A DNA stretch of 64,000 nt from Candidatus Aminicenantes bacterium (lineage in GTDB: Bacteria > Acidobacteriota > Aminicenantia > Aminicenantales > Aminicenantaceae), in NCBI GenBank assembly GCA_046483285.1, contig JAWODN010000119.1:6015-70014 (forward strand). The letters run 5' to 3'. The notes beneath the pieces were generated by a model. The model did no database searches. It was not told the DNA's origin and saw nothing but the letters and a program-made list of their open reading frames with translations. Position numbers and translations under genes: made by a program. Positions within the stretch are counted from its first letter, which is position 1. Every line of letters starts with the position of its first letter. Shown here piece by piece: positions 2,101-59,375 of the stretch.

Positions 2101-3417
2101 TCACTTTGAAACGCCGGGCCCGATCAGGATGGAAACACGGTTTTCCGGGTTGAGGACATTTCTGAGAAACATATTAAACGCCTCCCAAGAAATATTTTTC
2201 ATCTCCTTGAGAATTCCATGAAAAAATGAAGAGCCCAGTCCTGTCATTTCAAAAAAAGATATGGTTTGGACCCGCTGCTGTTTGGTTTCATTGGATCTGA
2301 GAAAAGAAGCCAGCGCATAATTCAGGATACTCTCCCATTCTTCTTTTCCCACGCCTTCGGAATAAATTTTATTCATTACGGCTTCCAGTTCGGCTTCGGC
2401 CGCCTCTTTTTTTCCGGATTCGGTTTCAAGGTAAACTTCCATCACCCCGCCTTCGCGAAAGTATTCCATTCTGGCATTGACGTGATAGGCCAGTTTTTTT
2501 TCGTCTCGGAGAGGCCATAGTTTAGAGCCGATCCCTTTTCCCAAGACATGTTCCAGCAAAAAAGCGCCGGCATAACGGCGGGCATTCAGGGGAGGCAGCC
2601 GGTAGGCCATCCCCACCAGGGTCTGCCGGGTGCTTCGCTCAATGGTTTTGGTGCGGCTGTGGATTTCAGGAAGATAAAATTCAGAACGGGCCGGAGGAGA
2701 GCCGGACGGGAATTTATTAAAATGTTCATCCAATAACCGGACAACAGTTTCCATATCCAAATCCGAACACACCATGGCCGTCATATTGCCCGGGCGGAAA
2801 TGGCTGTCAAAAAATTTCCGGATATCTTTTTTTTTGATGGATTTTATGGAGTCTTCAGTTCCGTAGATGGAACGTGCGTATCCGGTGCCGGGAAAAAGCA
2901 GTTCAACCGCGGTCTGATGAGCGGTATTTTCCGAATCATCCCGAAGGCTCTTTATTTGGCGTCCCATCTGTTCCTTGGCATGGTTGATGCGTATCCCGGA
3001 GAGGAGGGGATTCCGCATAATCTCCGAGACAACTTTCAAAGAGTCTTCCAAATTATCTGACAGGCAGGCTATAGAAACAAGAGAGTAGTCCGCGCGGCCG
3101 GTCATTAAGAGCTGGGTCGCCTGGCCCATGATGGTTTGAGTCTTGGACCGGTCGGGAAGAACCAGGGTCATTCTGGTGGACAGGTAAGACAATCCGGATT
3201 TATCGGGGGGTTCGGCGAATTGTCCGCCAGCAATGGAAAATTGGAGGACCGTGATACGGGAAGAGGTGTCCTGCTGATAAATCAGGGGCATTCCTGAGGA
3301 CAGTTGAACTTTTGCCAGCGTGTTTTTTTCACTTCTGGTCCCTGTGTCCGCATTTCCGGAAAAAGAAAGCACAGCCCAAAGAACAAGTCCGAAACAAACC
3401 TTACCGGCTTTTATCAC
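2101..3417 (-). CDS. M16 family peptidase, non-catalytic partner subunit (no HxxEH)
   Basis: 438 aa with an N-terminal signal peptide. It is pitrilysin-like but has no HxxEH zinc motif. The gene is translationally coupled to the upstream catalytic M16 gene (4-nt overlap). Confidence 0.7.
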   Translation of the reverse strand: MIKAGKVCFGLVLWAVLSFSGNADTGTRSEKNTLAKVQLSSGMPLIYQQDTSSRITVLQFSIAGGQFAEPPDKSGLSYLSTRMTLVLPDRSKTQTIMGQATQLLMTGRADYSLVSIACLSDNLEDSLKVVSEIMRNPLLSGIRINHAKEQMGRQIKSLRDDSENTAHQTAVELLFPGTGYARSIYGTEDSIKSIKKKDIRKFFDSHFRPGNMTAMVCSDLDMETVVRLLDEHFNKFPSGSPPARSEFYLPEIHSRTKTIERSTRQTLVGMAYRLPPLNARRYAGAFLLEHVLGKGIGSKLWPLRDEKKLAYHVNARMEYFREGGVMEVYLETESGKKEAAEAELEAVMNKIYSEGVGKEEWESILNYALASFLRSNETKQQRVQTISFFEMTGLGSSFFHGILKEMKNISWEAFNMFLRNVLNPENRVSILIGPGVSK

Positions 3418-4781
3418 GGTTTCTCCTTTTTCTGCGGCGTAATGCTGACCACCACCTGTTTGCCCCCGGCGAGATAATCTCCGGCGGCCGTGCGCAGATC
3501 CGTTGAGCCGGCTTCACGGATTTTATCAAGATACACACCGCGGTCATCCAATTCGTTCAACAGCATATAGCGGGCTATGGAAAACGCCTGGCTCAGACCT
3601 TTTTCCCGGCCTGTTTCCGTGGCGTACCGGATGCGGTTTTTGGCGCTTTCCAGAAAATCAAAAGCGTACCGGGAGGCTTCTCCCATGTGGTCGCTTTTAG
3701 AATAATTGAGTTTTGAAGTGGTGTTGAAATACCTTTGGATAACATGTTTGGCGGTTTTTAGATGTCCGGGATCCAGCCCTAAATAAATGGTCAGAACACC
3801 TCCATAGCGATAGGCCGAGTAACCCATCCGCAGGGATTGAGGGGTGATCCGCCTTTCAGCCAGCGGGTGATAAAGCAGCGGATTGACTCCTCTTCCGAAG
3901 ACTTCGGTCAACAAATCAACGAGATATTGATCCTCATGGTTGTAATCCGGCGCCGGCAGACCGACAGCCAGATAAGCCTGGTGAACATCCATTTCTTTTT
4001 CGATCTCAACGTTTTTTTCCAGCGGAGCGGCTTTTTCCAGGCGTACGGCGGGAAATTCGGCTTCAGGTTCCGTTCCCAAAGTGTTGTTGACCATTTCTTC
4101 CATTTCGGAAAGAGAAAACTCTCCCGCCACGGCCAGAGCCGCATTGGAAGTCACGAAATATTTATTATAAAATTTTTGGATTTGCCCTATGGAAGCGTTT
4201 TTAATGATGTCTTTTTTGCCTAAGACAGGCCGGTGATAGGGATGGCCGGGAAAAATATTTTGATGAATCAATGACATCGCTGTCCGGAAAGGATCATCTT
4301 CCGCCTGGTTGATTTCTTCCAGAATGACCTTTTTTTCTTTTTCCAGAGCCTCCCGGGTTATAGAGAGCCGGAAAATGACGTCTTTGAGGTGGTTCAGGGC
4401 GAATTCAGCGTATTCTGCAGGAAGTGACATCTCAAACACCGTCAGGTCCCGTCCGGTATGGGCGTTGAAATAGGCTCCGTTCCGGCGGATTTCCTTGCGG
4501 ATTGTTTCGGGAGAGCGGGTTTCCGTTCCGAAAAACAAGAGAGAATGTTCCAAAATATGCACAAACCCATTGGTCCGGTCCGTTTCGTTTTTGGAGCCCA
4601 CATCAAAAGCCAAAACAATATTCACCAAGGGCAGACCGGATTTCTCGGAAAGAAAAACTTTGAGGCCGTTATCCATTTGGATATAGCGGCTGGTTTCTTC
4701 ATTTTCCTGCGAGGCCAATTGGGATGGCGGAGGGAGGATGAGAAAAAAGCAAACCAAATATTTGACAATTCTGATTTTCAT
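3414..4781 (-). CDS. M16 family zinc metallopeptidase (catalytic subunit)
   Basis: 455 aa with a signal peptide. Carries the inverted zinc-binding motif 'HILEH' (HxxEH), as in insulinase/pitrilysin. Confidence 0.8.
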   Translation of the reverse strand: MKIRIVKYLVCFFLILPPPSQLASQENEETSRYIQMDNGLKVFLSEKSGLPLVNIVLAFDVGSKNETDRTNGFVHILEHSLLFFGTETRSPETIRKEIRRNGAYFNAHTGRDLTVFEMSLPAEYAEFALNHLKDVIFRLSITREALEKEKKVILEEINQAEDDPFRTAMSLIHQNIFPGHPYHRPVLGKKDIIKNASIGQIQKFYNKYFVTSNAALAVAGEFSLSEMEEMVNNTLGTEPEAEFPAVRLEKAAPLEKNVEIEKEMDVHQAYLAVGLPAPDYNHEDQYLVDLLTEVFGRGVNPLLYHPLAERRITPQSLRMGYSAYRYGGVLTIYLGLDPGHLKTAKHVIQRYFNTTSKLNYSKSDHMGEASRYAFDFLESAKNRIRYATETGREKGLSQAFSIARYMLLNELDDRGVYLDKIREAGSTDLRTAAGDYLAGGKQVVVSITPQKKEKP

Positions 4782-5011
4782 AAAGCCATCCGGATATAGC
4801 CTTGCTTAAATTATACTACATCAACCTTCCTGTTCTTGACAAGAGGGCCCCCGCCGGAATGGGGCGCATGCCGTTTTTCGGTTCACCCGGGAAAATAAGG
4901 AAAACCTTGAACGACAATTTTAAAACTCATGAAAATTGTTATAATCATAAAGATGGCAAAAGCCTGACCGGCCTATTTGGGGGCCGGGTTGAGGAATGAA
5001 TTTATTTGGTT

Positions 5012-5028
5012 TGGCATGATTCTTGTAT
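5012..5028 (+). promoter_or_regulatory. sigma-54-like promoter element (TGGCAT-N5-TTGTA), copy 1 of a thrice-repeated motif
   Basis: The sequence 'tttggtTTGGCATgattcTTGTAttt' lies about 30 nt upstream of the 5055 start. The -24 GG is present. The -12 element is non-canonical (GT instead of GC). Confidence 0.3.
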
Positions 5029-5054: not shown

Positions 5055-6206
5055 ATGCGTTTGCTTGGAAAAAAAGAACTGAATGCTTTAATGGAACAAA
5101 AAGGTCCCTATTGCGTTTCCGTCTACATGCCGACGGAAAAAGCGGGACGAGAAACCCGGATGAATCCCATTAGATTCAAAAATCTTATCAGTGCCGCAGA
5201 AAAGAGGCTGGGGGAAACGGATTTGAGTTCCAAGGAGACCGCCGCCATCCTCAAACCGGCCAATGACCTGTTGCTGAATTCGGTTTTCTGGCAGCATCAA
5301 AGCGAAGGCTTGGCCGTGTTCATCACCCCTGAAAATTTTTATCACTTCCAGCTCCCGATAAGTTTTCATGAGGAGATGATCATAAACAACCGGTTTTACT
5401 TAAAACCTCTGCTTTCTCTTTTCAGTGGAGACGGGCGATTTTATATTTTAGCATTGAGTCAAAAAAATGTTCGCTTGCTGCAGGCTTCGCGCTTCAGCTT
5501 CAGTGAAATCCCGCTTGAAGATATCCCCACCAGCATGGAGGAAGCTTTGGGATATGACGCTCTGGAGCAGCATCTGCAATTCCATGTGGCCAGCCGATCG
5601 GGAAAAAAACGGGGGGACCTTATGTTTCATGGGCAAGGCGGAGGCGAGGATGATTTTAAAAAAGATATTCAGCGGTACTTTCACAGAGTGGATAAAGGCC
5701 TTCGTAAGATTTTATCCGGAGAAAGCGCTCCTATGGTCTTGGCGGGAGTCGAATATATCCTTCCTCTGTTCAAGAACGTCAGCTCATATGCCAATTTTTT
5801 GGATGAAGCCGTGACCGGAAATCCGGATGAGTGGAGTGCGGAAGAGCTGCATGAAAAAGCATGGGAAACTGTTGAGCCCAATTTCAAAAAGGAGCAGGAA
5901 AAAGCGATGAAGCAGTTTCAAGATTTGCTCCATACGCCTCAAACTTCCCAGGATCTTAAGAAAATTCTCCCCGCAGCTCAGCACGGGAGGCTGGGTTGGC
6001 TCTTTATGGATGCGGCCGATCAAAGATGGGGGACTTTTCTGCCGGACAAAAATCAGGTGAAAATCGAGAAAGAGAAAAAAACCGGGTTGGAAGAGCTTAT
6101 TGACCTTGCTGCTGTCAAAACATTGGAGCATGGCGGTGTGGTGTATGCCTTGAAAAAAGAAGAGATGCCCGTCAAATCGCCGGTGGCGGCTGTTTTCCGC
6201 TGGTGA
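5055..6206 (+). CDS. hypothetical protein, possibly eRF1/Pelota-fold (bacterial archaeo-eukaryotic release-factor-like)
   Basis: 383 aa. A strong RBS 'ctaggaggtattaataATG' precedes the start. A central glycine-rich loop 'FHGQGGGEDDF' sits at about aa 190, comparable to the GGQ loop position in eRF1. No other recognisable enzymatic motif was found. Confidence 0.35.
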   Translation: MRLLGKKELNALMEQKGPYCVSVYMPTEKAGRETRMNPIRFKNLISAAEKRLGETDLSSKETAAILKPANDLLLNSVFWQHQSEGLAVFITPENFYHFQLPISFHEEMIINNRFYLKPLLSLFSGDGRFYILALSQKNVRLLQASRFSFSEIPLEDIPTSMEEALGYDALEQHLQFHVASRSGKKRGDLMFHGQGGGEDDFKKDIQRYFHRVDKGLRKILSGESAPMVLAGVEYILPLFKNVSSYANFLDEAVTGNPDEWSAEELHEKAWETVEPNFKKEQEKAMKQFQDLLHTPQTSQDLKKILPAAQHGRLGWLFMDAADQRWGTFLPDKNQVKIEKEKKTGLEELIDLAAVKTLEHGGVVYALKKEEMPVKSPVAAVFRW

Positions 6207-6347: not shown

Positions 6348-7796
6348 ATGACTGCGAAACGGAAAGAAAAAATTCTGGTGGTGGATGATGAGAAGAATAT
6401 CAGGAATTCTCTCAAAATGATTTTTGAATATGAGGGATATTCGGTTTTGGAAGCTGAAGACGGGGAAAAAGCAATGGAAGTCTTTGAGGAAGCCATCGGG
6501 ATCGACCTTATCCTTCTGGATGTCCAGCTTCCCGGGAAGAATGGACTGGAGATATTGAAGGAACTCAAGCAAAAGCCGTTTTCTCCTGAAGTTATCATGA
6601 TTTCTGGTCATGGAACCGTCCCGACCGCTGTCGAAGCCACCAAATTGGGGGCCTTTGACTTTTTGGAAAAACCGCTTAAACGGGAGCGGGTTCTGCTGAG
6701 TGTGCGGAATGCCCTCAGCCGGAAGCATCTTGTCCGGGAAAATATAAATCTGCGGCAGAAAGCAGAAAAACAATATCAATTAGTCGGGAATTCTCCTGTG
6801 ATGAAAAAACTATGGGAAGAAATAAAAAAGATCGCTCCCACCAACACCACAGTCATGATTTATGGGGAAAGCGGCACCGGCAAAGAACTTATCGCCCGTG
6901 CCGTCCACTCCCGGAGCCGTAGAGCCAAGGAAGCTTTCATCCAGGTGAACTGCGCCGCCATTCCGGAAGAATTGATTGAAAGTGAATTGTTCGGCCACGT
7001 CAAGGGCGCATTCACCGGAGCGACGGATAAAAAGCCGGGAAAATTTGAATTAGCGGACGGAGGTACCATTTTTCTGGACGAGATTGCGGATATGAGCCTG
7101 AAAACCCAATCGAAAGTGCTTCGGGTTCTGGAAGAAGGAGAGGTGCAGAAAGTGGGTTCCTCCAAGATCGATAAAGTGGATGTCCGGGTGATCGCCGCCA
7201 CCAATAAAGACCTGAAGCAGGAAATATCCCGGAACAATTTCCGGGAGGATTTGTATTTCCGTTTAAATGTGGTTCCCCTGTATTCTCCCCCTCTGCGGGA
7301 AAAACCGGAGGATATCCCGCTTCTGGTTGAATATTTCGCCGGTTTGTTTGTCACTGATAATAATTTCAAGAAAAAAAATTTTTCCGGCAGCGCCCTGGAA
7401 GCCATGCGGAGGCACCACTGGAAAGGCAATGTCAGGGAATTAAAGAACGTGGTTGAGAGATTGATTGTTATGAGTGAAAAAGGTACAATAGAAGCAAAGG
7501 ACCTTCCGGAACAAATAAAAGGGGAAAACAAAATCTTTTTACCGGATACGGATGAGGTGAAAAGTCTGAAAGAATTCCGGGAACAGGCGGAAAAACAGTA
7601 TATTCTGGCCCGTTTGAAAGAGAATGACTGGAATATATCCCGTACCGCCAGGGATATTGATACTCCGAGAAGTAATTTATATAAAAAGTTAGACCAGCAT
7701 GGAATAAAAATAACGTCCGGAGTGGATGAGGTGGTTGCTTCTTCCGAACAGGAAGGGGAGGAAAGTCCGAACTCCACAGGGCAGGATGGTCGCTAA
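6348..7796 (+). CDS. sigma-54-dependent response regulator (NtrC/AtoC family): receiver, AAA+ and Fis-type HTH domains
   Basis: The receiver domain has the phospho-acceptor region 'DLILLDVQLPG'. The AAA+ sigma-54 interaction domain shows Walker A 'GESGTGKE', the 'GAFTGA' motif and the 'ESELFGH' box. A C-terminal HTH is present. No histidine kinase is adjacent. The 3' 80 nt overlap rnpB. Confidence 0.85.
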   Translation: MTAKRKEKILVVDDEKNIRNSLKMIFEYEGYSVLEAEDGEKAMEVFEEAIGIDLILLDVQLPGKNGLEILKELKQKPFSPEVIMISGHGTVPTAVEATKLGAFDFLEKPLKRERVLLSVRNALSRKHLVRENINLRQKAEKQYQLVGNSPVMKKLWEEIKKIAPTNTTVMIYGESGTGKELIARAVHSRSRRAKEAFIQVNCAAIPEELIESELFGHVKGAFTGATDKKPGKFELADGGTIFLDEIADMSLKTQSKVLRVLEEGEVQKVGSSKIDKVDVRVIAATNKDLKQEISRNNFREDLYFRLNVVPLYSPPLREKPEDIPLLVEYFAGLFVTDNNFKKKNFSGSALEAMRRHHWKGNVRELKNVVERLIVMSEKGTIEAKDLPEQIKGENKIFLPDTDEVKSLKEFREQAEKQYILARLKENDWNISRTARDIDTPRSNLYKKLDQHGIKITSGVDEVVASSEQEGEESPNSTGQDGR

Positions 7797-8079
7797 CAGC
7801 GACTCCGGGCAACCGGAGGAAAGTGCCGCAGAAAACAAACCGCCTGGGGAATGATTGTCCGCAGGCAAGGGTGAAAAGGTGAGGTAAGAGCTCACCGCTT
7901 TGAGAGTGATCTCAAAGGCACGGTAAACCCCATCCGGAGCAAGGCCAAATTGGCCCTGATGAGGCGGCCCGTCTCATGGGGCGGGTAGGCCGCTTATGCT
8001 TTATTTCGGCAAAGCGCAGATAAATAACCACCCCCGCCTCCGGCGGGAACAGAATTCGGCTTATGTCCCGCTCCGGACG
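7714..8079 (+). ncRNA. rnpB: RNase P RNA (bacterial type A)
   Basis: Universally conserved blocks are present: 'GGAGGAAAGTCCGAACTCCACAGGGCAGG', 'CGGAGGAAAGTGCCGCAGAAAACAAACCGCC', 'GGTGAAAAGGTGAGGTAAGAGCTCACC', 'GGTAAACCCCATCCGGAGCAAGGCCAAAT' and 'ACAGAATTCGGCTTATG'. The P1 helix pairs 5' 'cgtccggagtgg' with 3' 'ccgctccggacg'. Confidence 0.9.
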
Positions 8080-13378: not shown

Positions 13379-13884
13379 TTTTTATTTGCTTTCTTGACTA
13401 AAACAATCGCTCCCACCATTGCCCCGATAATCAGGATAGATGTGATCTCAAAGGGATAAAGATATTTGGTGAAGAGAATCTCGCCCATGGCGGCCGGACT
13501 TCCGATGTGTTCATGCACCAGGGGAGTGGCGGGAAAAAAAGCGGATTTCAGGGCGATTATTAATTCAACCGCTAATATGATTCCGATAACCGTGACCGGG
13601 ATGCGGATTCGTCTTTTTTTTTCCGGGGAGAATCCTTTTCCGACGTCGATCATCATGATGGCGAAAATAAAAAGCACCATGATGGCTCCGGCGTAGATAA
13701 TGATCTGGACCACGGCGATGAAAGGAGCTTGCATAAGACCGAAAAGGCCGGCGGTGCCGGCCAGAGCCAAGATAAGGAATAATGCGGAATAAGCTGGATT
13801 TTTACTTAGGATCATTGCTATGACGGAAGCAACACATATGAAGCTGAGCAGGAAAAATAAAAAATGAACCATTTTGGGAGTCAT
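13375..13884 (-). CDS. nuoJ: NADH-quinone oxidoreductase subunit J
   Basis: 169 aa membrane protein lying immediately upstream of nuoK in the operon. Confidence 0.75.
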   Translation of the reverse strand: MTPKMVHFLFFLLSFICVASVIAMILSKNPAYSALFLILALAGTAGLFGLMQAPFIAVVQIIIYAGAIMVLFIFAIMMIDVGKGFSPEKKRRIRIPVTVIGIILAVELIIALKSAFFPATPLVHEHIGSPAAMGEILFTKYLYPFEITSILIIGAMVGAIVLVKKANKK

Positions 13885-13935
13885 TATATTTATTGAGTTC
13901 GTAGGATGTCAAGTAAATATTTGACAAAATATGCT

Positions 13936-13963
13936 TTGACAAGTTAAGCCTTTCTGCTATAAT
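13936..13963 (+). promoter_or_regulatory. consensus sigma-70 promoter for initiator tRNA (TTGACA-N16-TATAAT)
   Basis: A perfect -35 TTGACA (13936-13941) and a perfect -10 TATAAT (13958-13963) with a 16-nt spacer. The predicted transcription start lies about 7-12 nt before the tRNA 5' end. A second TTGACA sits 15 nt further upstream. Confidence 0.6.
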
Positions 13964-13974
13964 AGGCTTCAAGT

Positions 13975-14051
<77 letters not shown>

Positions 14052-14375
14052 TCTCTTTATTCCAAAACATTCCTTCCGCTATCATTTTCCTTGTTCGACG
14101 CTGCAGTTTTAGGATGGGGATCCGTGCCGCTCAGAAATCCCCTGATTTAAGTCTCCAGCCGGAATGGTGAGCGGGCCGAACCTCACCCCTATCTGCCGTG
14201 CTGCCGGCAATGACGCTGTGGATCCTCATGGCGAACCCCTTGATTAATCCGATACTGTTTGATAAGAATTTGTCCCGGTCAGCCGTACATGACATGTGTT
14301 TTGTCCTCTTTTATGCTTTGACGGTTTCACTTTTTCTCAGGTTTAAATCCCGGAATCGCCGAAATCCGCATTGTT

Positions 14376-14391
14376 TGGCATGATTTTTGAA
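14376..14391 (+). promoter_or_regulatory. sigma-54-like promoter element (TGGCAT-N5-TTGAA), copy 2 of the repeated motif
   Basis: The sequence 'ttgtTTGGCATgatttTTGAAgg' lies 57-72 nt upstream of the 14448 ATG. Confidence 0.25.
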
Positions 14392-14447
14392 GGGAATAGG
14401 AATTGAAAACAGCTTTATGTGAAATAACTCTGTTATCAGGAGGAAAA

Positions 14448-17400
14448 ATGAACCCGCGCATTTTTTATAAAACCGCCGGTATGACATTGTTTATCGTTTT
14501 GATTTTCACCGCCTATCCAGTGGAGGCGCAGTATTTCGGCCGCAACAAAGTTCAGTATGACACATTTGACTTCAAAGTGATCAGCACCAAAAATTTTGAC
14601 CTTTATTTTTATCCGGAGGGAGAAGAGGCCGCCCGGATGGCCGCCCGGATGGCGGAAAGGTGGTATTCCCGGCTGTCCCGGATATTGCAGCATGAGCTGT
14701 CCGGCCGGCAGATCCTCATTTTATACACCAGCGGACCTCATTTCCAGCAGACCACCGCCATTCCCAGAATTTTAGGGGAAGGCGTCGGAGGTGTGACGGA
14801 AAGCCTCAAGCGGAGAATCGTGCTTCCCATGTCGGCATCATTAGAGGAATCCAACCATGTGATCGGTCATGAATTGGTCCATGCCTTTCAATATGATATC
14901 ACCGGCCAGTATCATTCTGATTTCGCCCGCGTCGCTCCCTCCATCCAGCGCCTCCCTCTTTGGTTTGTGGAAGGGATGGCGGAATACCTGTCCTTAGGAC
15001 CCGTGGACTCTCATACCGCCATGTGGATGCGGGATATCCTGAAAAAAGAAGAACTTCCCGGAATTCATCAACTGAATAATCCCCGATATTTCCCTTATCG
15101 GTACGGGCATGCGGTTTGGGCCTATATAACCGGAAGATGGGGCGACCAGGCCGTTCCGGGAATCCTGAAGCGCGTCGGGCGGGCCGGTGACTACCGGACC
15201 GCAATTAAAGAGGTCACAGGCGAGGATATCAAAGACATTTCCCAGTCATGGCATAAATCTTTAAGAGAGGCTTATCAACCGGTTCAGGAACGAACTCTGA
15301 TGGTGGATGAACTGAGCGAGCCCCTTATTCCCGGAACCCGTCAGAACTCCTTGAATATATCACCGGCTCTGAGCCCGGACGGAAAAAGCCTGGTGTTTTT
15401 GTCCACCAAGGATATTTTTTCCATTGATATGTTTCTCGCCGATGCCGAAACCGGCGAGTTCAAGCGCAAGCTGGTCAGCACTGCGGTCAATCCTCATTTT
15501 TCCAGCCTTCAGTTCACCAGATCAGCGGGAAGCTGGGATTTTGACGGCCGCCGTTTTGTGTTCGGAGCGGTGACCGGGGGGGATCCGGTTTTAAGCATAT
15601 TGAATATTCCCTCCGGAGACAAAGTCCGGGAAATCAGATTTCCGGAATTAGGAGAGGTGCTCAATCCGGCCTGGTCTCCGGACGGCCGAAATATTGTTTT
15701 TTCCGCTTTGGACGGGGGGGTTTCCAATCTGTTTCTCTACGATTTGGAGACCGATCAGTTGACAAAATTAACCGATGACCCTTATGCCGATCTTTATCCG
15801 GCCTGGTCTCCGGACGGCCGGAAAATCGCCTTTTCCACCGACCGATTTTCAACAGATCTGGCTCTCTTGGATATAGGCCATTTCGAGTTGGCCATGCTGG
15901 ACATACAAACACGAAAAATTCAAAAGCTGCCGGGTTTCTCCGAGGCGAAAAATATAAATCCCCAGTGGTCCTCCGATTCCCGGGAGCTGTACTTTATTTC
16001 CGACCGCACAGGAATTTCCAACTTGTATAATTTGGATCTGGAAACCGAAACCATCACTCAAATCACCGACTTATACACCGGAGTTTCCGGAATCACGGAG
16101 CTCAGCCCGGCGCTTTCGGTTGCCAGTGCGACCGAAAAATTAGCTTACTGCATTTACGAAAACGATTATTACAGCATTTATTCCGTCGAATCGGGCCGGG
16201 AATTGATCCGCGGCGAACAGACGGTGTATACGGAGCTGCGGCCTTCGGTTTTGCCCCCCCGCTCTCAACCGGAAGGAACGGTGGCAGGCTTGCTCCGGAA
16301 TCCATTATTCGGGCTCCCGGAGGCGAGGGAATATCAGCCTGAGGATTATAAGTCCGCCCTGACTCTGGATTATATCGCTCCGCCTCAAATGGCGGTGGGA
16401 GTGGACCGGTTCGGCACCTACGGGGGGGGCGGAATCGCCTTGTTTTTCAGCGATGTTTTGGGTTACCAGAGCCTTGCCACTATGGCCCAGGTGAGCTCCC
16501 GTATTCTGAATTCAGCGGCAGCGGTGAGTTATTTATATAAACAATACCGGTGGAATTTCGGCGGTGTCGCCCAGAGGATGCCTTATGTGACCGGAGGATT
16601 CACCCAATCCGTCCAAAATGTGCGGGGGGAGCCGGCTTTGGTGGAACAGGAGTTCACATTCCGCCAGGTCAATTACCAAGTGTCAGCCTTGGCTGAATAC
16701 CCTTTCAGCCAGGTTTTTCGATTTGAATTATCAGGCGGATATCAATATCTCAATTTCGACCGCGAAGTCCGCACCCGGGCCGTCTCGCTTATTGACAATG
16801 CCACGCTTATCAATGAGAAGGAAAGCCTGCCCGCCCCGGACAGCCTGCATTTCGGACGAGGAAGCGCCGCCCTGGTCTATGACAGCTCTTATGTTGGAGC
16901 CACCAGTCCGGTGCTGGGCCAGCGCTACCGGATGGAAGTGTCTCCCATGGCGGGATCCATTAATTTTGCGGAGGTTCTGACGGATTACCGCCGATATTTT
17001 ATGCCGGTCCAACCTTTCACCCTGGCGTTCCGTTTCATGCACTACGGCCGCTATGGTCCCGGCGCGGAAGACAGCCGTCTCTATCCCTTATTCATGGGTT
17101 ATCAAACCATGGTCAGAGGATATAACACCGCGTCCTTCAGCGCCGAAGAATGCGGTGAAGAAGGCTGTCAGGTTTTCAATCAATTATTCGGCAGTAAAAT
17201 GATGGTGGCCAATCTGGAGCTGAGATTTCCTCTTTTCAATGTGCTGGGTATAGGCAGGGGATTTTACGGGATTCTGCCTGTTGAGTTTTCTGCTTTTTTT
17301 GACAGCGGCCTGGCCTGGAACACCCAGGATAAAGCCTGGTTTTTGGGAGGGGACCGCCGGCCGGTCAAAAGCGCGGGCATCGGTCTGCGCATGAATATTT

Positions 17401-17495
17401 TCGGCTATGCCATCGCCGGAATCAGCTATGTGTATCCTTTTGACCGGCCCAATAAAGACGCCTACTTTCAGTTTTGGCTGACTCCCGGCTTTTAA
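14448..17495 (+). CDS. secreted multidomain protein: HExxH zincin peptidase, TolB-like beta-propeller and C-terminal Omp85-type beta-barrel
   Basis: A strong RBS 'caggaggaaaaATG' precedes the 14448 start, and a signal peptide ends at 'VEA/QYF'. The metallopeptidase motif is 'GHELVHAFQYD'. Repeated 'PAWSPDG' blades mark the propeller. The last roughly 400 aa alternate hydrophobic and polar residues and end in '...YFQFWLTPGF' (terminal F), which is typical of Omp85/BamA barrels. Confidence 0.75.
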   Translation: MNPRIFYKTAGMTLFIVLIFTAYPVEAQYFGRNKVQYDTFDFKVISTKNFDLYFYPEGEEAARMAARMAERWYSRLSRILQHELSGRQILILYTSGPHFQQTTAIPRILGEGVGGVTESLKRRIVLPMSASLEESNHVIGHELVHAFQYDITGQYHSDFARVAPSIQRLPLWFVEGMAEYLSLGPVDSHTAMWMRDILKKEELPGIHQLNNPRYFPYRYGHAVWAYITGRWGDQAVPGILKRVGRAGDYRTAIKEVTGEDIKDISQSWHKSLREAYQPVQERTLMVDELSEPLIPGTRQNSLNISPALSPDGKSLVFLSTKDIFSIDMFLADAETGEFKRKLVSTAVNPHFSSLQFTRSAGSWDFDGRRFVFGAVTGGDPVLSILNIPSGDKVREIRFPELGEVLNPAWSPDGRNIVFSALDGGVSNLFLYDLETDQLTKLTDDPYADLYPAWSPDGRKIAFSTDRFSTDLALLDIGHFELAMLDIQTRKIQKLPGFSEAKNINPQWSSDSRELYFISDRTGISNLYNLDLETETITQITDLYTGVSGITELSPALSVASATEKLAYCIYENDYYSIYSVESGRELIRGEQTVYTELRPSVLPPRSQPEGTVAGLLRNPLFGLPEAREYQPEDYKSALTLDYIAPPQMAVGVDRFGTYGGGGIALFFSDVLGYQSLATMAQVSSRILNSAAAVSYLYKQYRWNFGGVAQRMPYVTGGFTQSVQNVRGEPALVEQEFTFRQVNYQVSALAEYPFSQVFRFELSGGYQYLNFDREVRTRAVSLIDNATLINEKESLPAPDSLHFGRGSAALVYDSSYVGATSPVLGQRYRMEVSPMAGSINFAEVLTDYRRYFMPVQPFTLAFRFMHYGRYGPGAEDSRLYPLFMGYQTMVRGYNTASFSAEECGEEGCQVFNQLFGSKMMVANLELRFPLFNVLGIGRGFYGILPVEFSAFFDSGLAWNTQDKAWFLGGDRRPVKSAGIGLRMNIFGYAIAGISYVYPFDRPNKDAYFQFWLTPGF

Positions 17496-17551: not shown

Positions 17552-19945
17552 ATGAAATATATCAAATGGTTTGAAGAAGTCGGTTCAGGAGAAGTGCCCC
17601 AGGTGGGCGGTAAAAATGCCTCCCTCGGCGAGATGATTTCTCAATTGAAAAGTCAAGGCATCCGCATTCCGGATGGATTCGCCACCACTTCGGAGGCATA
17701 CCGTTTGGTTGTCAAAGAAAATGATATAGAGGAACAGCTGAAAAACACATTTAAAGAATTGGAAAACGGCAATATCTCTCTTGGAAAAACCGGCAAGAAA
17801 ATCCGCCGTCTGTTCACAAAGGCAAGCATTCCGGATGAGCTGGAGAAGGAATTGAGAAAAGCTTATCAAGAACTTTCCCGCAAATATAAGTCGGATGAAG
17901 TGGATGTGGCGGTAAGGAGTTCGGCGACGGCGGAAGACCTTCCGGAAGCCAGTTTCGCCGGTCAGCAGGAGACATTTCTAAACGTTACCGGGGAGGAGGA
18001 GCTGCTGGAGGCCTGCCGTAAATGTTACGCTTCCCTTTTTACCGACCGTGCGATTTCCTATCGGCGGGAAAAGGGATTCGATCATCTTAAAATCGCTCTT
18101 TCCGTGGGTGTGCAAAAAATGGTTAGAGCGGATAAGGGCGGTTCAGGGGTTATGTTTTCTTTGGACACGGAGACCGGATTCCGGGACGTCGTGGTCATAA
18201 ACGCAGCCTGGGGGCTGGGTGAAAATGTGGTGCAGGGCTCGGTTAATCCGGATGAATACCGGGTGTTTAAACCTTTGCTGGGCAAAAAAGATCTTCAGCC
18301 TGTTATCCAGAAAGAATTGGGTTCCAAGGAGAAGAAGATGGTGTATGCTGGCGGCGGCAGCCGGGACACCAAAAATGTTGAGACCTCAAAGAACGAAAGG
18401 GCGGGATACGTTCTCAATGATGATGAGATTTTAAAATTGGCGGAATGGGCGGTTGTTATCGAAGACCATTATGATAAGCCCATGGATATGGAATGGGCCA
18501 AGGACGGGGAGTCCGGGGATCTGTTTATTGTGCAGGCGCGGCCGGAGACCGTTCAGTCGCTTAAAACCGCCGGTCAGATGAAAGCATACCGCCTCAAGGA
18601 AAAAGGAAAAAAAATCATCGAAGGCCTGGCTATAGGTGAAGCCGTAGCCGCCGGGAAATCACAAATCATTAAAGACCCTGATCAAATAGACCGGTTTGAA
18701 GAAAACGCCATTCTGGTGACGGGGCAGACCGATCCCGACTGGGTGCCTGTCATGAAAAAAGCCTCCGGGATTGTGACGGACCATGGGGGGCGCACCTCCC
18801 ATGCCGCCATCGTCAGCCGGGAACTGGGGATTCCGGCCGTGGTCGGCACTGGAGAGGCCACTTCCAGCCTGAAGGACGGCAGCGAGATAACCATATCCTG
18901 TGTGGAAGGGGATAAGGGCATAGTCTATGACGGGATTTTGGATTTTGAAGAAAAAGAGGTGGATCTGGAGAAAATTCCGGAAACCCGAACCCGGATTATG
19001 ATGAATATCGCCAGCCCGGCGGCGGCTTTCCGCTGGTGGCGGCTGCGGGCTCAAGGAATCGGGCTGGCCCGAATGGAATTCATCATCAATAACATCATAA
19101 AAATTCATCCTATGGCTCTGGTCGATTTCGATTCTCTTTCCGATAAAAAAGCCAAACATGACATTGAAACACTGACCCGGGGATTCGATAACAAGGGCGA
19201 TTACTTTGTCGAGCATCTGTCCCGGGGCATCGCACGAATCGCCGCTTCCCAGTATCCGGAGCCTGTCATTGTGCGCATGAGTGATTTTAAAACCAATGAA
19301 TACGCCAATTTGATTGGCGGCAGGGAATTCGAGCCGGGTGAGGCTAATCCCATGCTGGGATTGCGGGGGGCGTCCCGCTATTACAGTGATCATTACCGGG
19401 AGGGATTCCGCTTGGAATGCCGGGGTATTCAGCGTGCCCGGGATGAAATCGGACTGGATAATGTTGTTGTTATGATCCCTTTCTGCCGCACCCTGGAGGA
19501 AGCGGATAAGATTTTGGAGGTTCTTGCGGAAAACGGATTGGAGAGGGGGAAGAACGGACTGGAAGTGTATGTGATGATCGAAATCCCTTCCAACGTGATT
19601 TTGGCGGAGGAATTCGCCCGCCGTTTTGACGGTTTTTCCATCGGAACCAATGATTTGACCCAGTTGATTTTGGGAGTTGACCGTGATTCAGAAGAATTAT
19701 CTGGAATTTATGATGAGCGCAACGAGGCGGTGAAAAGCATGATCCGTCAAGTCATAGAACGAGCTCATAAGCATGAGACCAAGGTGGGGATCTGCGGGCA
19801 GGCCCCCAGTGATCATCCGGATTTCGCCGCTTTCCTGGTGGAGGCGGGAATCGATTCCATTTCTCTTAATCCGGACAGCGTGATTGACGTCAAAGAAAAG
19901 GTGCATAAAAAAGAAAAAGAATTGAAGAAAAGAAGGGATGAATAA
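17552..19945 (+). CDS. ppsA: phosphoenolpyruvate synthase (pyruvate, water dikinase)
   Basis: 797 aa. The N-terminus 'FEEVGSGEVPQVGGKNASLGEM' matches PpsA. The mobile phosphohistidine domain is 'GGRTSHAAIVSRELGIPAVVG', followed by a C-terminal PEP-utilising TIM barrel. The RBS is 'aaaggag'. Confidence 0.9.
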   Translation: MKYIKWFEEVGSGEVPQVGGKNASLGEMISQLKSQGIRIPDGFATTSEAYRLVVKENDIEEQLKNTFKELENGNISLGKTGKKIRRLFTKASIPDELEKELRKAYQELSRKYKSDEVDVAVRSSATAEDLPEASFAGQQETFLNVTGEEELLEACRKCYASLFTDRAISYRREKGFDHLKIALSVGVQKMVRADKGGSGVMFSLDTETGFRDVVVINAAWGLGENVVQGSVNPDEYRVFKPLLGKKDLQPVIQKELGSKEKKMVYAGGGSRDTKNVETSKNERAGYVLNDDEILKLAEWAVVIEDHYDKPMDMEWAKDGESGDLFIVQARPETVQSLKTAGQMKAYRLKEKGKKIIEGLAIGEAVAAGKSQIIKDPDQIDRFEENAILVTGQTDPDWVPVMKKASGIVTDHGGRTSHAAIVSRELGIPAVVGTGEATSSLKDGSEITISCVEGDKGIVYDGILDFEEKEVDLEKIPETRTRIMMNIASPAAAFRWWRLRAQGIGLARMEFIINNIIKIHPMALVDFDSLSDKKAKHDIETLTRGFDNKGDYFVEHLSRGIARIAASQYPEPVIVRMSDFKTNEYANLIGGREFEPGEANPMLGLRGASRYYSDHYREGFRLECRGIQRARDEIGLDNVVVMIPFCRTLEEADKILEVLAENGLERGKNGLEVYVMIEIPSNVILAEEFARRFDGFSIGTNDLTQLILGVDRDSEELSGIYDERNEAVKSMIRQVIERAHKHETKVGICGQAPSDHPDFAAFLVEAGIDSISLNPDSVIDVKEKVHKKEKELKKRRDE

Positions 19946-38155: not shown

Positions 38156-38396
38156 TTAAAAATGTGTTCCATCTCAGCATCGAAGCTGTTTTCCTCTTCT
38201 AAGTCAAATATAACCCAAACCTTATTCATGGCTTCATCAGCGTTCGCCGGATGCTCCATCCGGAATGAATTCGATTTTCCTCCCAATCAGGTGTGTTCGC
38301 TTCCGAAAAAAATCCCAGTTTCCGGCTTTGCGGAACGTTTTCTTGCGAGGGAAGAATAAATCCTGTCTTTTCCTTCCTGCTCCTGGGAAAAGAAGT

Positions 38397-38412
38397 TGGC
38401 ATGATTTTTGTA
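38397..38412 (+). promoter_or_regulatory. sigma-54-like element (TGGCAT-N5-TTGTA), copy 3 of the repeated motif
   Basis: The sequence 'agTTGGCATgatttTTGTAtttatg' lies about 160 nt upstream of the dodecin gene. Confidence 0.2.
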
Positions 38413-38571: not shown

Positions 38572-38772
38572 ATGAGTACGGCAAAAGTCATTGAAATTAT
38601 CGGAAGTTCGGAAACAAGCTGGGAAGACGCAGCCCAAAAAGCTTTATTGGACGCGGAAAAATCAGTGGAAGGCATAACCGGTTTAGAAGTGGTATCGCAA
38701 ACTGCAGAGGTTGAAAATAACAAGATTAAATATTACAAAACTGCTATTCGAGTCGCCTTTATTGTTAAATGA
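38572..38772 (+). CDS. dodecin family flavin-binding protein
   Basis: 66 aa, 'KVIEIIGSSETSWEDAAQKALLDAEKSVEGITGLEVV...IRVAFIV' matches the dodecin fold consensus. The RBS is 'aaaggagg'. Confidence 0.7.
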   Translation: MSTAKVIEIIGSSETSWEDAAQKALLDAEKSVEGITGLEVVSQTAEVENNKIKYYKTAIRVAFIVK

Positions 38773-56657: not shown

Positions 56658-59375
56658 TTATTGCGCAGGGTCTTTTTTCCTGGATTTTCCAATTGTGACC
56701 GGATCGGGGGCTTCGATTCGGAGCTTTCTTTCCGCTGATGCTTGTCCGGCCTTGATCGTAACGCGGTAAGTCCCGGGTTCAGCCAAGCGGAGGCCGCGGT
56801 GGAGGAGAGGCCGATTCGATCCGTAGGCGCTCCCGGTCACCAGATCCCAGACGGCCCGGTTGAGTCCAGCCCGCCCGTCCATGAAAGTCCGCCAGACCGT
56901 TTCATCATTCGCATTGAGAACCGCGATTTCCGCCTTTTGACCGCGGTTCAGAGCGAAGTGGAAAACGGCCTGTTTTCGCATTTCCAGGGCCCAGTCCCCG
57001 CCGTAGTCCCGCCGTTGGGGGAGAAGGGCCGGCCGGACAGGGAAAAAATGGATGGGCTTGGCGGCGGTTTCCGGTGTCCAGGCCTGGACGGGGGCGATGT
57101 CCAGTTTAAAGAAACTCCGTCCGTGGGTGGCGATGACCAATTCCTGTTCGCGGGCTTGAATAGCCAGATCGTGAATGGGGGTGGTGGGAAGATCGGCAGC
57201 CAGCGACGTCCAGCTATCTCCTCTGTCGAATGTGACGTAGATTCCGCCCTGGTCGGTTCCGATGTAGAGCTTATCCGGGTCTTTCGGGTCTTCGCCAATA
57301 ACGTTGACCTGCTCTTCAGGCAAGTCATTGGAAATCGGCTGCCACTTTTGGCCGAAGTCGGAGGATTTGTAAATGTAGGTTTGGAAATCATTTTCCCGGT
57401 ATCCGGTCAGGGTGACGTAGACGCTTCCTTCTTCGTGGGCGGATGCGGTGACCCGGCTGACCCATTTGTCCGGAAGGGCGCACCCGATCTCGGTCCAGTC
57501 GACCCCGTCGTTGACCGTGACCCAGACCCGGCCGTCATCCGTTCCTGCGTACAGAATCCCCGGTTTCAGGGGGGATTCGCTGATGGTGGTGATGGTTCCG
57601 TAAGGGACATTGCCCTGCCTGTCCAGACCAGGCTGGGTGGAAAGGTCGGGACTGACCGCCTGCCAGTCATCCCCTTTGTTCAGAGATTTGAAAAGGCGGT
57701 TGGCTCCGAAGTAAAGAATGCCGGGGTTATGATGGGAAATGATGAAGGGCGACATCCAGTTGTAGCGGAGTTCCGGCTCTCCCTCAGCGGCCCTGGGGCG
57801 AATTCGTGTGATTTCTCCGGTGGCCATATTTTTGCGCTGCAGCCCCCCGAACTGCTGCTCGAAATAAATGATGTCCGGGTTCGTGGGGTCAACCAGGGTG
57901 ATGTAGGAATCTCCTCCCCCCCAGAGATCGATCCAGACATAACTCCATTCGTCCTCAATGCCGTCCTCGGGGAACCGGTCGGCACGGCCGAAAAGGGCGG
58001 CGTTGTCCTGAGTTCCACCGTAAACATGATAAGGGTCGGCGTCGTCCAGGGACAGTGCGTAGAATTCGCCCGCGGGGATGTTGTTGAGGTGGAGCCAGGT
58101 TTCGCCGCGATCCCGGCTCAAATAGATCCCGCCGTCGTTTCCCAGGATCAGCCTGTCCGGATCGGTGGGGTCGATCCAAAGATCATGCTGGTCCAGATGA
58201 AGGGAACGGGACGGATGACTGTAAAGATGGATGACTGTTCCGTGCAGGTTGGTGAAGGTTTGCCCCCGGTCTTGGGACCTCATCAGGTTTTGACCCAAGG
58301 CGTAGAAAACGTCGGGATTTTCCGGTGAAACGACGATATCGCCAAAGAATCCCATGCGGTGGATGTCGCTTTTCATGGGAACCTTCCGCCAGGAGGCTCC
58401 AGCGTTTTCAGAGAGATAGACCTCGGGTCCGATCCGGGTGGTGCGGGTTCCTTCTCCGGTTTTTGTTTCGACCGGAGTCGCGTTGAAAAGGAAAGCATAA
58501 ATGATGTTCGGGTCGGATGGAGCTGCGGCCAGTCCGATGCGTCCGATGTTCGGTCCAGAAGGGAACCCGTTTGTCAGCCGCTTCCATGTCCGCCCGGCGT
58601 CCTCGGACTTATAAACGCCGGAACCTTCCCCATGCTCGATGTTCTCCCATGCCCGGCGGGCGTGTTGGTTGGCAGCGGCGTAAACGATGGAGGGATTGGA
58701 AGGATCCATAACCACATCCACAGCGCCTGTTTTTTCATCGATGTAAAGGACCTTTTTCCAGGATTTTCCGCCGTCTTCGGTTTTGAACAATCCCCGATCT
58801 TCGTTCCAGGAATATTCGTGCCCCAAGGCAGCGACGTACACGATGTCCGGATTTTCCGGGTGTACGGCGACCCGGGCGATGTGATGTGTGTCCGCTAATC
58901 CCGTATGAATCCAGGTTTTCCCGCCGTCCGTGGATTTGAAGACGCCCAATCCGGCGAAGGAGCTGCGGGCCAGCAGGTTTTCGCCTGTTCCGACATAAAG
59001 GATTTCGGGGTGGGAATCGGAAACATCCAGGTCGCCGATGGTGAAAGTCGGTTGATGTTCAAAGATAGGCGTCCAGGTTAATCCGTCGTTTTCCGTTTTC
59101 CAGACGTTGCCGGCACCGAACCCGACGTAAATGATGGAGGTCCCGGGAACAGCGTCGATTGTTTCCACCCGTCCTCCCTGAAAGCGCGGGCCCAAGGCCT
59201 GCCAGTGAAGACCCCGGAAGGGAGAGGCTTCCCGTTTTGCCTGACGCTGCTCCCATGATGCCATGCGGCGGGAACCCGAGGCCGAAGCGGGGCTTTCCAT
59301 TTGTCCGGGGGCAGGCGGGGCCAATGTGAAAAATAAAAAGACAATTCCCATAAAGGTTGAGAAGATGTTTTTCAT
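56658..59375 (-). CDS. secreted BNR/Asp-box repeat beta-propeller protein (sortilin/VPS10-like or GH74-like)
   Basis: 905 aa with a signal peptide. It has more than 10 Asp-box motifs (SxDxGxTW), for example 'TENDGLTW', 'STDGGKTW', 'TEDGGKSW', 'SEDAGRTW', 'SRDRGETW'. Confidence 0.7.
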   Translation of the reverse strand: MKNIFSTFMGIVFLFFTLAPPAPGQMESPASASGSRRMASWEQRQAKREASPFRGLHWQALGPRFQGGRVETIDAVPGTSIIYVGFGAGNVWKTENDGLTWTPIFEHQPTFTIGDLDVSDSHPEILYVGTGENLLARSSFAGLGVFKSTDGGKTWIHTGLADTHHIARVAVHPENPDIVYVAALGHEYSWNEDRGLFKTEDGGKSWKKVLYIDEKTGAVDVVMDPSNPSIVYAAANQHARRAWENIEHGEGSGVYKSEDAGRTWKRLTNGFPSGPNIGRIGLAAAPSDPNIIYAFLFNATPVETKTGEGTRTTRIGPEVYLSENAGASWRKVPMKSDIHRMGFFGDIVVSPENPDVFYALGQNLMRSQDRGQTFTNLHGTVIHLYSHPSRSLHLDQHDLWIDPTDPDRLILGNDGGIYLSRDRGETWLHLNNIPAGEFYALSLDDADPYHVYGGTQDNAALFGRADRFPEDGIEDEWSYVWIDLWGGGDSYITLVDPTNPDIIYFEQQFGGLQRKNMATGEITRIRPRAAEGEPELRYNWMSPFIISHHNPGILYFGANRLFKSLNKGDDWQAVSPDLSTQPGLDRQGNVPYGTITTISESPLKPGILYAGTDDGRVWVTVNDGVDWTEIGCALPDKWVSRVTASAHEEGSVYVTLTGYRENDFQTYIYKSSDFGQKWQPISNDLPEEQVNVIGEDPKDPDKLYIGTDQGGIYVTFDRGDSWTSLAADLPTTPIHDLAIQAREQELVIATHGRSFFKLDIAPVQAWTPETAAKPIHFFPVRPALLPQRRDYGGDWALEMRKQAVFHFALNRGQKAEIAVLNANDETVWRTFMDGRAGLNRAVWDLVTGSAYGSNRPLLHRGLRLAEPGTYRVTIKAGQASAERKLRIEAPDPVTIGKSRKKDPAQ

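Follow-up and report, generated by a model that had tools for sequence, protein, structure and literature searches.

What does a single bacterial polypeptide do when it joins a zinc-peptidase motif to a beta-propeller and an outer-membrane barrel, and on which side of the outer membrane would it act? The question is raised by a gene at 14448-17495 in a 64,000-nucleotide stretch of Candidatus Aminicenantes bacterium DNA (GenBank assembly GCA_046483285.1, contig JAWODN010000119.1, positions 6,015 to 70,014 of the forward strand), referred to below as the window, whose own numbering is used throughout. A sequence-only reading of this DNA had described the product as a secreted protein of 1016 amino acids (aa) made of a zincin protease, a TolB-like propeller and an Omp85-type barrel. 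The open reading frame (ORF) is real and begins with a signal peptide, and the three-part reading proves correct in each part on the evidence of Pfam and NCBIfam matches, predicted models and Foldseek searches; only the length has to be amended, to 1015 aa followed by a stop codon (17493-17495). We show here that this Omp85 fusion protein is a member of a catalogued and widespread subfamily, and we argue, largely by analogy with better characterised Omp85 proteins, that it is best read as an active zinc endopeptidase that probably sits in the outer membrane with its enzyme on the periplasmic side.

The elements of the gene are given below, with residue counts taken from a conservation alignment of the window protein and 73 full-length orthologues from several phyla, 43-58% identical to it (n = 74).

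14438-14443, forward strand: Shine-Dalgarno AGGAGG, 4 nt ahead of the ATG at 14448, read from the sequence.
14448-17495, forward strand: coding sequence of the Omp85 fusion, 1015 aa and stop codon.
14448-14528, forward strand: Sec-type signal peptide, residues 1-27 (...AYPVEA/QYFG), recognised from sequence, with a putative cleavage site.
14529-15302, forward strand: gluzincin (clan MA) peptidase domain, residues 28-285, assigned from weak Pfam matches and Foldseek.
14787-14801, forward strand: GGVTE, residues 114-118, 27 residues upstream of HExxH, with G114, G115 and T117 in 74/74.
14868-14882, forward strand: HELVH zinc-binding and catalytic motif, residues 141-145, with H141, E142 and H145 in 74/74 and invariant in a further alignment.
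14961-14987, forward strand: WFVEGMAEY, residues 172-180, with E175, G176 and E179 in 74/74, E175 being the presumed third zinc ligand.
15315-16187, forward strand: TolB-type PD40 beta-propeller, residues 290-580, probably of six blades, from Pfam, NCBIfam and the model.
16188-16385, forward strand: linker, residues 581-646 (about 65 aa), with no POTRA domain, from the model and Pfam.
16386-17492, forward strand: Omp85-type beta-barrel, residues 647-1015, its 16 strands starting near residue 659.
17112-17123, forward strand: VRGY motif of loop L6, residues 889-892, between strands 11 and 12, with R890, G891 and Y892 in 74/74.
17295-17309, forward strand: FFDSG, residues 950-954, the (F/G)xDxG motif of strand 13, with F950, D952 and G954 in 74/74.
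17466-17492, forward strand: C-terminal strand FQFWLTPGF with an aromatic end (beta-signal), the last residue being F, W or Y in 73/74.

Two predicted structures were used: a full-length AlphaFold2 model with 50 homologues as input (predicted local distance difference test, pLDDT, 80.8; predicted template modelling score, pTM, 0.73), and a second AlphaFold model limited to residues 27-292 (pLDDT 74.9), which served for Foldseek. The former places a helix at residues 3-26, within a signal peptide whose sequence is devoid of a lipobox cysteine, followed by an alpha/beta zincin domain at residues 43-282. A sequence scan finds HELVH to be the sole HExxH of the fusion protein, and the earlier identification of this motif as that of a metallopeptidase is upheld. 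The pairing of HExxH with a downstream Glu by which gluzincins are recognised is found in 74 of the 74 proteins, as are Y217 and R218, and motif similarity makes E175 the presumed third zinc ligand. The helix that carries it resembles the ligand helix of M1 and MA_2 peptidases, which we take to be W-x-x-E-G-x-A-x-Y, and the 30 residues from H145 to E175 presumably correspond to the spacing in M9 collagenases. Similarly, the Gly-Gly of GGVTE recalls what we take to be the double-Gly motif upstream of HExxH in M9 collagenases, and on the strength of that likeness this segment is probably the substrate-binding edge strand.

The assignment to clan MA is supported from the structural side, as the 50 top Foldseek matches of the zincin model all fall in the catalytic domains of M1 aminopeptidases or M9 collagenases, with moderate support for a thermolysin-like zincin fold (TMq about 0.5, E values of 6e-4 to 2e-2). 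Profile searches of the kind that the sequence-only reading had proposed were run; PD40 and Omp85 were matched, whereas the peptidase families all fell below their gathering scores (Peptidase_MA_2 at 19.0 bits against 32.4, Peptidase_M9 at 18.5 against 26, and BSP weakly), and for many homologues of the protein a match to PF13485 is available precomputed. The accessions PF26549 and PF26550, likewise precomputed for the database matches, were not returned by the Pfam scan of the fusion protein. The fusion protein therefore resembles M1 and M9 gluzincins in its HExxH, in the Glu of the E-G-x-A-x-Y helix and in the thermolysin-like catalytic fold, but is only 11-16% identical to them, scores below threshold in Pfam and is devoid of the other M1/M9 enzyme domains. 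The GAMEN (GxMEN) exopeptidase motif was not found in the sequence of the fusion protein, GGVTE occupying the comparable position, and an M1-type aminopeptidase is ruled out on that account. Two further segments are strongly conserved and yet modelled with pLDDT below 50 in both predictions, namely the nearly invariant mature N-terminus QYFGRNKVQY (residues 28-38, 14529-14561) and the Gly-rich residues 100-122 around GGVTE (14745-14813); these may be docking, plug or substrate-binding elements.

At the opposite end of the chain, Pfam Omp85 (PF01103) is matched at residues 821-1009 with 36.2 bits against a gathering score of 24, which places the domain in the superfamily. The prediction of a C-terminal barrel closing on an aromatic residue (...FQFWLTPGF) agrees with this match and with the AlphaFold2 model, in which 16 strands are formed if the short strand at 647-652 is not counted, and in which a long loop at 870-916 connects strands 11 and 12, an arrangement that we take to be the BamA topology. 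Both hallmark motifs of the superfamily, (V/I)RG(Y/F) in L6 and (F/G)xDxG, are present, whereas its POTRA feature is missing: the Pfam scan of the fusion protein gives no match to PF07244 and no beta-alpha-alpha-beta-beta unit is modelled at 581-646, so that the structure prediction that had been suggested as a check returns a 16-strand barrel without POTRA. The noNterm and WD40-like Omp85 subfamilies equally lack POTRA (PMC4104836). The protein shares with BamA and TamA the L6 VRGY, the strand-13 FxDxG and the C-terminal aromatic residue, but has an enzyme and a propeller where their POTRA arm would be. It was rejected as BamA proper, with 35.8 bits for TIGR03303, far below the cut-off of 297.15, and no POTRA domains where the BamA criterion calls for five.

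Between the two ends, the model shows a propeller at residues 291-580, and the PD40/TolB-type blades noted from sequence are confirmed by Pfam PD40 on four stretches (E 9e-21) together with a partial NCBIfam TolB match at residues 362-468 (TIGR02800, 111.7 bits against a cut-off of 343.15). DPPIV_N is matched as well, and some sources name homologues S9 peptidases; this identity was rejected, Pfam detecting the DPPIV_N propeller only and no S9 catalytic domain. TolB orthology was likewise rejected, the score being below the equivalog cut-off, the alignment covering the propeller alone (243 of 397 TolB residues) and the context being other than tol-pal; in contrast to TolB, the protein is without the N-terminal, TolA-binding domain and lies outside any tol-pal operon. 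The linker that follows is poorly ordered in the model, with short helices or strands only and low pLDDT at 642-660. Mean identity in the alignment is highest in the zincin (55%) and lowest in the linker (33%). The invariance of both the zinc site and the L6 and strand-13 residues of the barrel indicates that both are under selection, and the protease half and the Omp85 half both appear, from these conserved motifs, to be functional.

The sequence-only reading had not recognised a described family and had thought the architecture unusual, and on both counts the record is otherwise. Heinz & Lithgow in 2014 catalogued a 'WD40-like' Omp85 subfamily, defined as PF07676 repeats plus PF01103 (Table S2 of PMC4104836; Front Microbiol 5:370). 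For the eight WD40-like members given in the available part of their Table S3 (Caldithrix H1XQ58, Rhodothermus D0MEQ5 and others), the barrel template is BamA or TamA, the 'best WD40 hit' is TolB (2ivz or 2w8b) and the 'best aminopeptidase hit' is 1z5h, 4kxd, 4fgm or 4ar1, which are M1/M9 peptidases (PMC4104836). The peptidase appears solely in that table; the main text treats the propeller only, likening the architecture to a BamA-BamB fusion (PMC4104836). A 2024 paper mentions Omp85 subfamilies having 'divergent WD40 and peptidase domains' (PMC11358297). For the window protein, BamA/TamA, TolB and M1/M9 were arrived at independently as the template classes, just as in Table S3; in it PD40 stands N-terminal to a PF01103 barrel, and a TolB propeller template is accompanied by an M1/M9-type peptidase match. 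By Pfam profile and template classes, the fusion protein is a member of the WD40-like Omp85 subfamily, with the same PF07676 and PF01103 profile and absence of POTRA and nothing substantive to set it apart, Aminicenantes being a phylum outside the eight examples in the accessible part of Table S3. Full-length relatives are present in phyla represented among those examples, e.g. Bacteroidota. Cultivable organisms are among the carriers, as Heinz & Lithgow include members from Myxococcus, Sorangium, Rhodothermus marinus and Echinicola. The domain annotation given here is a correct call on a catalogued family and not the discovery of a new kind.

The subfamily is also large. A word-indexed database search returned at least 8000 relatives, all with E below 1e-5, the top 120 of which are all about 1000 aa long and 57-100% identical; the NCBI protein identical at 100% is named 'MAG: BamA/TamA family outer membrane protein [Candidatus Aminicenantes bacterium]', and other names in the sources include 'PD40 domain-containing protein', 'peptidase S9', 'peptidase MA family metallohydrolase' and 'Tol biopolymer transport system component'. 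Scanning one genome per species confirmed at least 587 loci, and the best 80 of these nearly all cover the protein from residues ~1-30 to 1015; these 80 come from Aminicenantes, other Acidobacteriota (Vicinamibacterales, Bryobacterales), Gemmatimonadota, Bacteroidota, Ignavibacteria, Eisenbacteria and others. With a profile of the zincin alone, 1084 clusters at 50% identity were obtained at E of 1e-30 or below, and about 90 of the 150 matches listed are roughly 900-1100 aa long, the shorter ones being assumed to be fragments. Searches of the literature for PD40/WD40-Omp85 and related terms led only to Heinz & Lithgow 2014 and to work that cites the classification made there, and to no functional study. 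The WD40/peptidase-Omp85 subfamily is thus carried mainly by poorly studied phyla (Acidobacteriota including Aminicenantes, Gemmatimonadota, Bacteroidota and Ignavibacteria), and its topology and substrates would reveal uses of the Omp85 scaffold beyond insertion and secretion, a question reopened by a 2024 result on PlpD.

That result bears directly on which way the enzyme faces. The patatin domain of PlpD 'resides exclusively in the periplasm' (PMC11116518), and the N-terminal domains of characterised Omp85 proteins are all described as periplasmic (PMC11116518, PMC11358297). These two observations, taken together with an invariant L6 that locks the barrel lumen, make a periplasm-facing enzyme the most likely arrangement, and we consider that an outer-membrane-anchored zinc endopeptidase of this orientation has somewhat better than even prospects of being correct. 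PlpD resembles the fusion protein in having a hydrolytic enzyme N-terminal to an Omp85 barrel, with the enzyme by analogy probably periplasmic in both; it differs in that the enzyme is a patatin lipase rather than a zincin with a propeller and in that its family often has POTRA (PF07244; PMC4104836). Dimerisation and strand-swapping are seen in PlpD. The candidate of a PlpD-type Vd autotransporter was rejected on the Pfam scan, which matches neither PF01734 (patatin) nor PF07244.

We propose that the protein would be exported by Sec and then take its place in the outer membrane by way of its C-terminal Omp85 barrel of 16 strands, and that the N-terminal ~550 residues, a gluzincin packed against the propeller, would stay in the periplasm, tethered by the short POTRA-less linker. 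The gluzincin, judged by its conserved residues, would be a catalytically competent endopeptidase, and the propeller would probably select or gate unfolded chains or oligopeptides for the zinc site, as in tricorn protease and S9 peptidases. Since the barrel retains both hallmark Omp85 motifs, its role may go beyond attachment, which is the simplest possibility, to the binding of outer-membrane proteins that bear a beta-signal or are stalled, or to docking beside BAM. By analogy, the whole may act as a single-chain envelope quality-control or turnover protease, with a logic like that of BepA at BAM. The likeness to BepA is one of function only, with no homology claimed: BepA is described as a periplasmic zinc protease acting at an Omp85 machine in outer-membrane-protein quality control, but it is a separate soluble M48 protein with a TPR domain, unlike an M1/M9-like gluzincin fused to its own barrel.

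Several points weigh against the periplasmic endopeptidase. The Pfam peptidase scores fall short of gathering (19 bits where 32.4 are required), and the structural matches are moderate (TM ~0.5); topology, substrates and activity are matters of inference for every member of the subfamily; the active site may be turned towards either the propeller or the barrel; and the conserved Omp85 motifs could reflect the needs of barrel folding alone and not substrate handling. A more specific form of the proposal, in which the barrel seam captures the beta-signal of stalled or misfolded substrates, the propeller threads them, the gluzincin degrades them and sigma-54 induces the whole as a self-contained quality control of outer-membrane proteins, is speculative and has a low probability. 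If true, it would correspond, within one polypeptide, to BAM plus BepA, and would be a second case after PlpD of an Omp85 scaffold reused for periplasmic enzymology. We know of no studied equivalents of BAM and BepA in the phyla that carry the fusion protein.

The first alternative is the possibility, raised by the sequence-only reading, of a self-exporting surface protease of type V, similar to type Vd, in which the barrel would carry the unfolded zincin-propeller to the cell surface, there to break down proteins of the environment as nutrients. The host phyla Aminicenantes, Acidobacteriota, Bacteroidota and Gemmatimonadota are commonly held to be protein-degrading heterotrophs, and a promoter of the sigma-54 type, such as that described below, would suit nutrient-regulated expression. 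The order of domains, an enzyme preceding an Omp85 barrel, matches the type Vd model first put forward for PlpD (PMC4104836), but this sole precedent has been overturned by the experimentally periplasmic passenger reported in PMC11116518, and the uniformly periplasmic N-terminal domains of characterised Omp85 proteins point the same way. Self-export is further contradicted by the lumen-filling L6 VRGY and FxDxG lock, invariant in 74 of 74 proteins, by the absence of a POTRA domain in Pfam and by the absence of a TpsA-like partner in the neighbour clustering. As the analogous PlpD passenger is periplasmic, self-export of the fusion protein is unlikely and finds no support here.

A second alternative is a specialised outer-membrane-protein insertase, a BamA paralogue in which the propeller replaces BamB and the zincin serves as an accessory, for processing or in a chaperone-like role, rather than for degradation. 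The notion of a 'BamA-BamB fusion' put forward by Heinz & Lithgow (PMC4104836) would fit this reading, as would the preservation of VRGY, FxDxG and the terminal aromatic residue by the barrel and the ability of Sam50 to function without POTRA (cited in PMC4104836). It is opposed by the TIGR03303 score (35.8 bits against a cut-off of 297) and by the zincin itself, which is the most conserved part of the protein and has invariant catalytic residues, arguing that proteolysis is central rather than accessory; we regard an insertase as quite unlikely. A Tol-Pal-associated factor, whose propeller would bind Pal or peptidoglycan while the zincin cleaves envelope tethers or peptidoglycan peptides during division or remodelling, is very improbable even though the propeller has TolB as its nearest relative in both structure and sequence and many homologues are labelled 'Tol biopolymer transport system component' by JGI, given the TolB equivalog score (111.7 bits against 343), an alignment that takes in the propeller alone (243 of the 397 residues of TolB), the lack of an N-terminal domain for TolA binding, the absence of tol/pal genes from the conserved neighbours and the frequency of PD40 propellers in unrelated peptidases.

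Returning to the periplasmic endopeptidase, a clue to when it would be made lies upstream of the gene, where the sequence-only reading had placed the second copy of a motif shared within the window. This copy, TTGGCATGATT, is indeed present at 14375-14385 and overlaps the following element.

14376-14390, forward strand: sigma-54-like -24/-12 element TGGCATG-ATTT-TTGA, copy 2 of TTGGCATGATT, in which the -12 part is TTGA and not the canonical TTGC.

Exact copies of TTGGCATGATT start at 5011, 14375 and 38396 on the forward strand of the window, the motif spanning 5011-5026, 14375-14390 and 38396-38411, and the extended form TGGCATGATTNTTG likewise occurs exactly three times there, whereas 100 shuffles yielded 0 copies. 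In the window the sequence is TGGCATG-N4-TTG(A/T), which is the layout of a sigma-54 site (GG at -24 and GC at -12, TGGCAC-N5-TTGC) with the C of the -12 element missing. In nine related loci, nearly all from Aminicenantes or unclassified metagenome-assembled genomes, the sigma-54 layout recurs 39-239 nt upstream of the orthologue on its coding strand; six of them (L001, L002, L007, L008, L009 and L032) have the canonical TGGCAYR-N4-TTGC, for an estimated ~0.2 chance matches, and L006, L012 and L022 a TTGT variant. The sites upstream of the Omp85 fusion orthologues lie, for instance, at 5930 in L001, 1665 in L002, 5731 in L008 and 3675 in L009. Canonical versions ahead of orthologues where ~0.2 would be expected by chance mean that the motif is best read as a sigma-54-type promoter, from which transcription of the fusion gene in the Aminicenantes lineage appears, on these sequences, to start; activator-dependent and condition-responsive expression would be implied. 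Against this stands the TTGA in the -12 element of the window copy, which makes the use of sigma-54 at the window locus uncertain. Neither rpoN nor a gene for a sigma-54 activator was found among the 21 window proteins scanned, and the 400-bp leader of the fusion gene gives no Rfam match to an RNA element at the gathering threshold.

About 320 bp of non-coding DNA (14052-14375) separate the sigma-54-like site from the tRNA-Met gene and may include enhancer sites at which a sigma-54 activator would bind. Of the three copies of the motif in the window, the first stands ahead of a gene for a release-factor-like protein of the baeRF (bacterial archaeo-eukaryotic release factor) family (5055-6206), the second ahead of the Omp85 fusion gene and the third ahead of a gene for dodecin (38572-38772). 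The baeRF-like protein (383 aa, forward strand), matched by several baeRF families (E 1e-49), is encoded directly behind its copy, and the dodecin gene begins ~175 nt downstream of the copy at 38396.

The neighbours of the fusion gene are the nuoJ, K, L, M and N genes upstream on the reverse strand and, downstream, a gene for a PEP-utilising enzyme (17552-19945) followed by ATP synthase genes; no terminator-like site was found between the fusion-gene stop codon and the next gene. No conserved operon partner emerged among the best 80 loci, where 747 ORFs were clustered and the largest neighbour cluster is present in 7 of 80, so that the gene is a stand-alone one whose context offers no functional clue. 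The tRNA-Met gene at 13975-14051 has a perfect sigma-70 promoter at 13936-13963 on the forward strand. This is one of two back-to-back sigma-70 promoter matches, each 12/12, within 13883-13963, the other (13912-13883, reverse strand) serving the nuoJ-N operon; such matches indicate that the organism uses canonical sigma-70 promoters beside sigma-54-like sites.

Elsewhere in the window, a full-length Rfam match (287 bits) identifies a bacterial class A RNase P RNA at 7718-8079 on the forward strand. Two adjacent genes for M16 (insulinase/pitrilysin-type) peptidases of 455 and 438 aa lie at 2101-4781 on the reverse strand, with an N-terminal Peptidase_M16 match that is strong in the first and weak in the second, as is typical of an active/inactive heterodimer. 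Finally, a second large protein of the propeller type, 905 aa long and with Sortilin-Vps10 and BNR/Asp-box repeats, is encoded at 56658-59375 on the reverse strand of the window.

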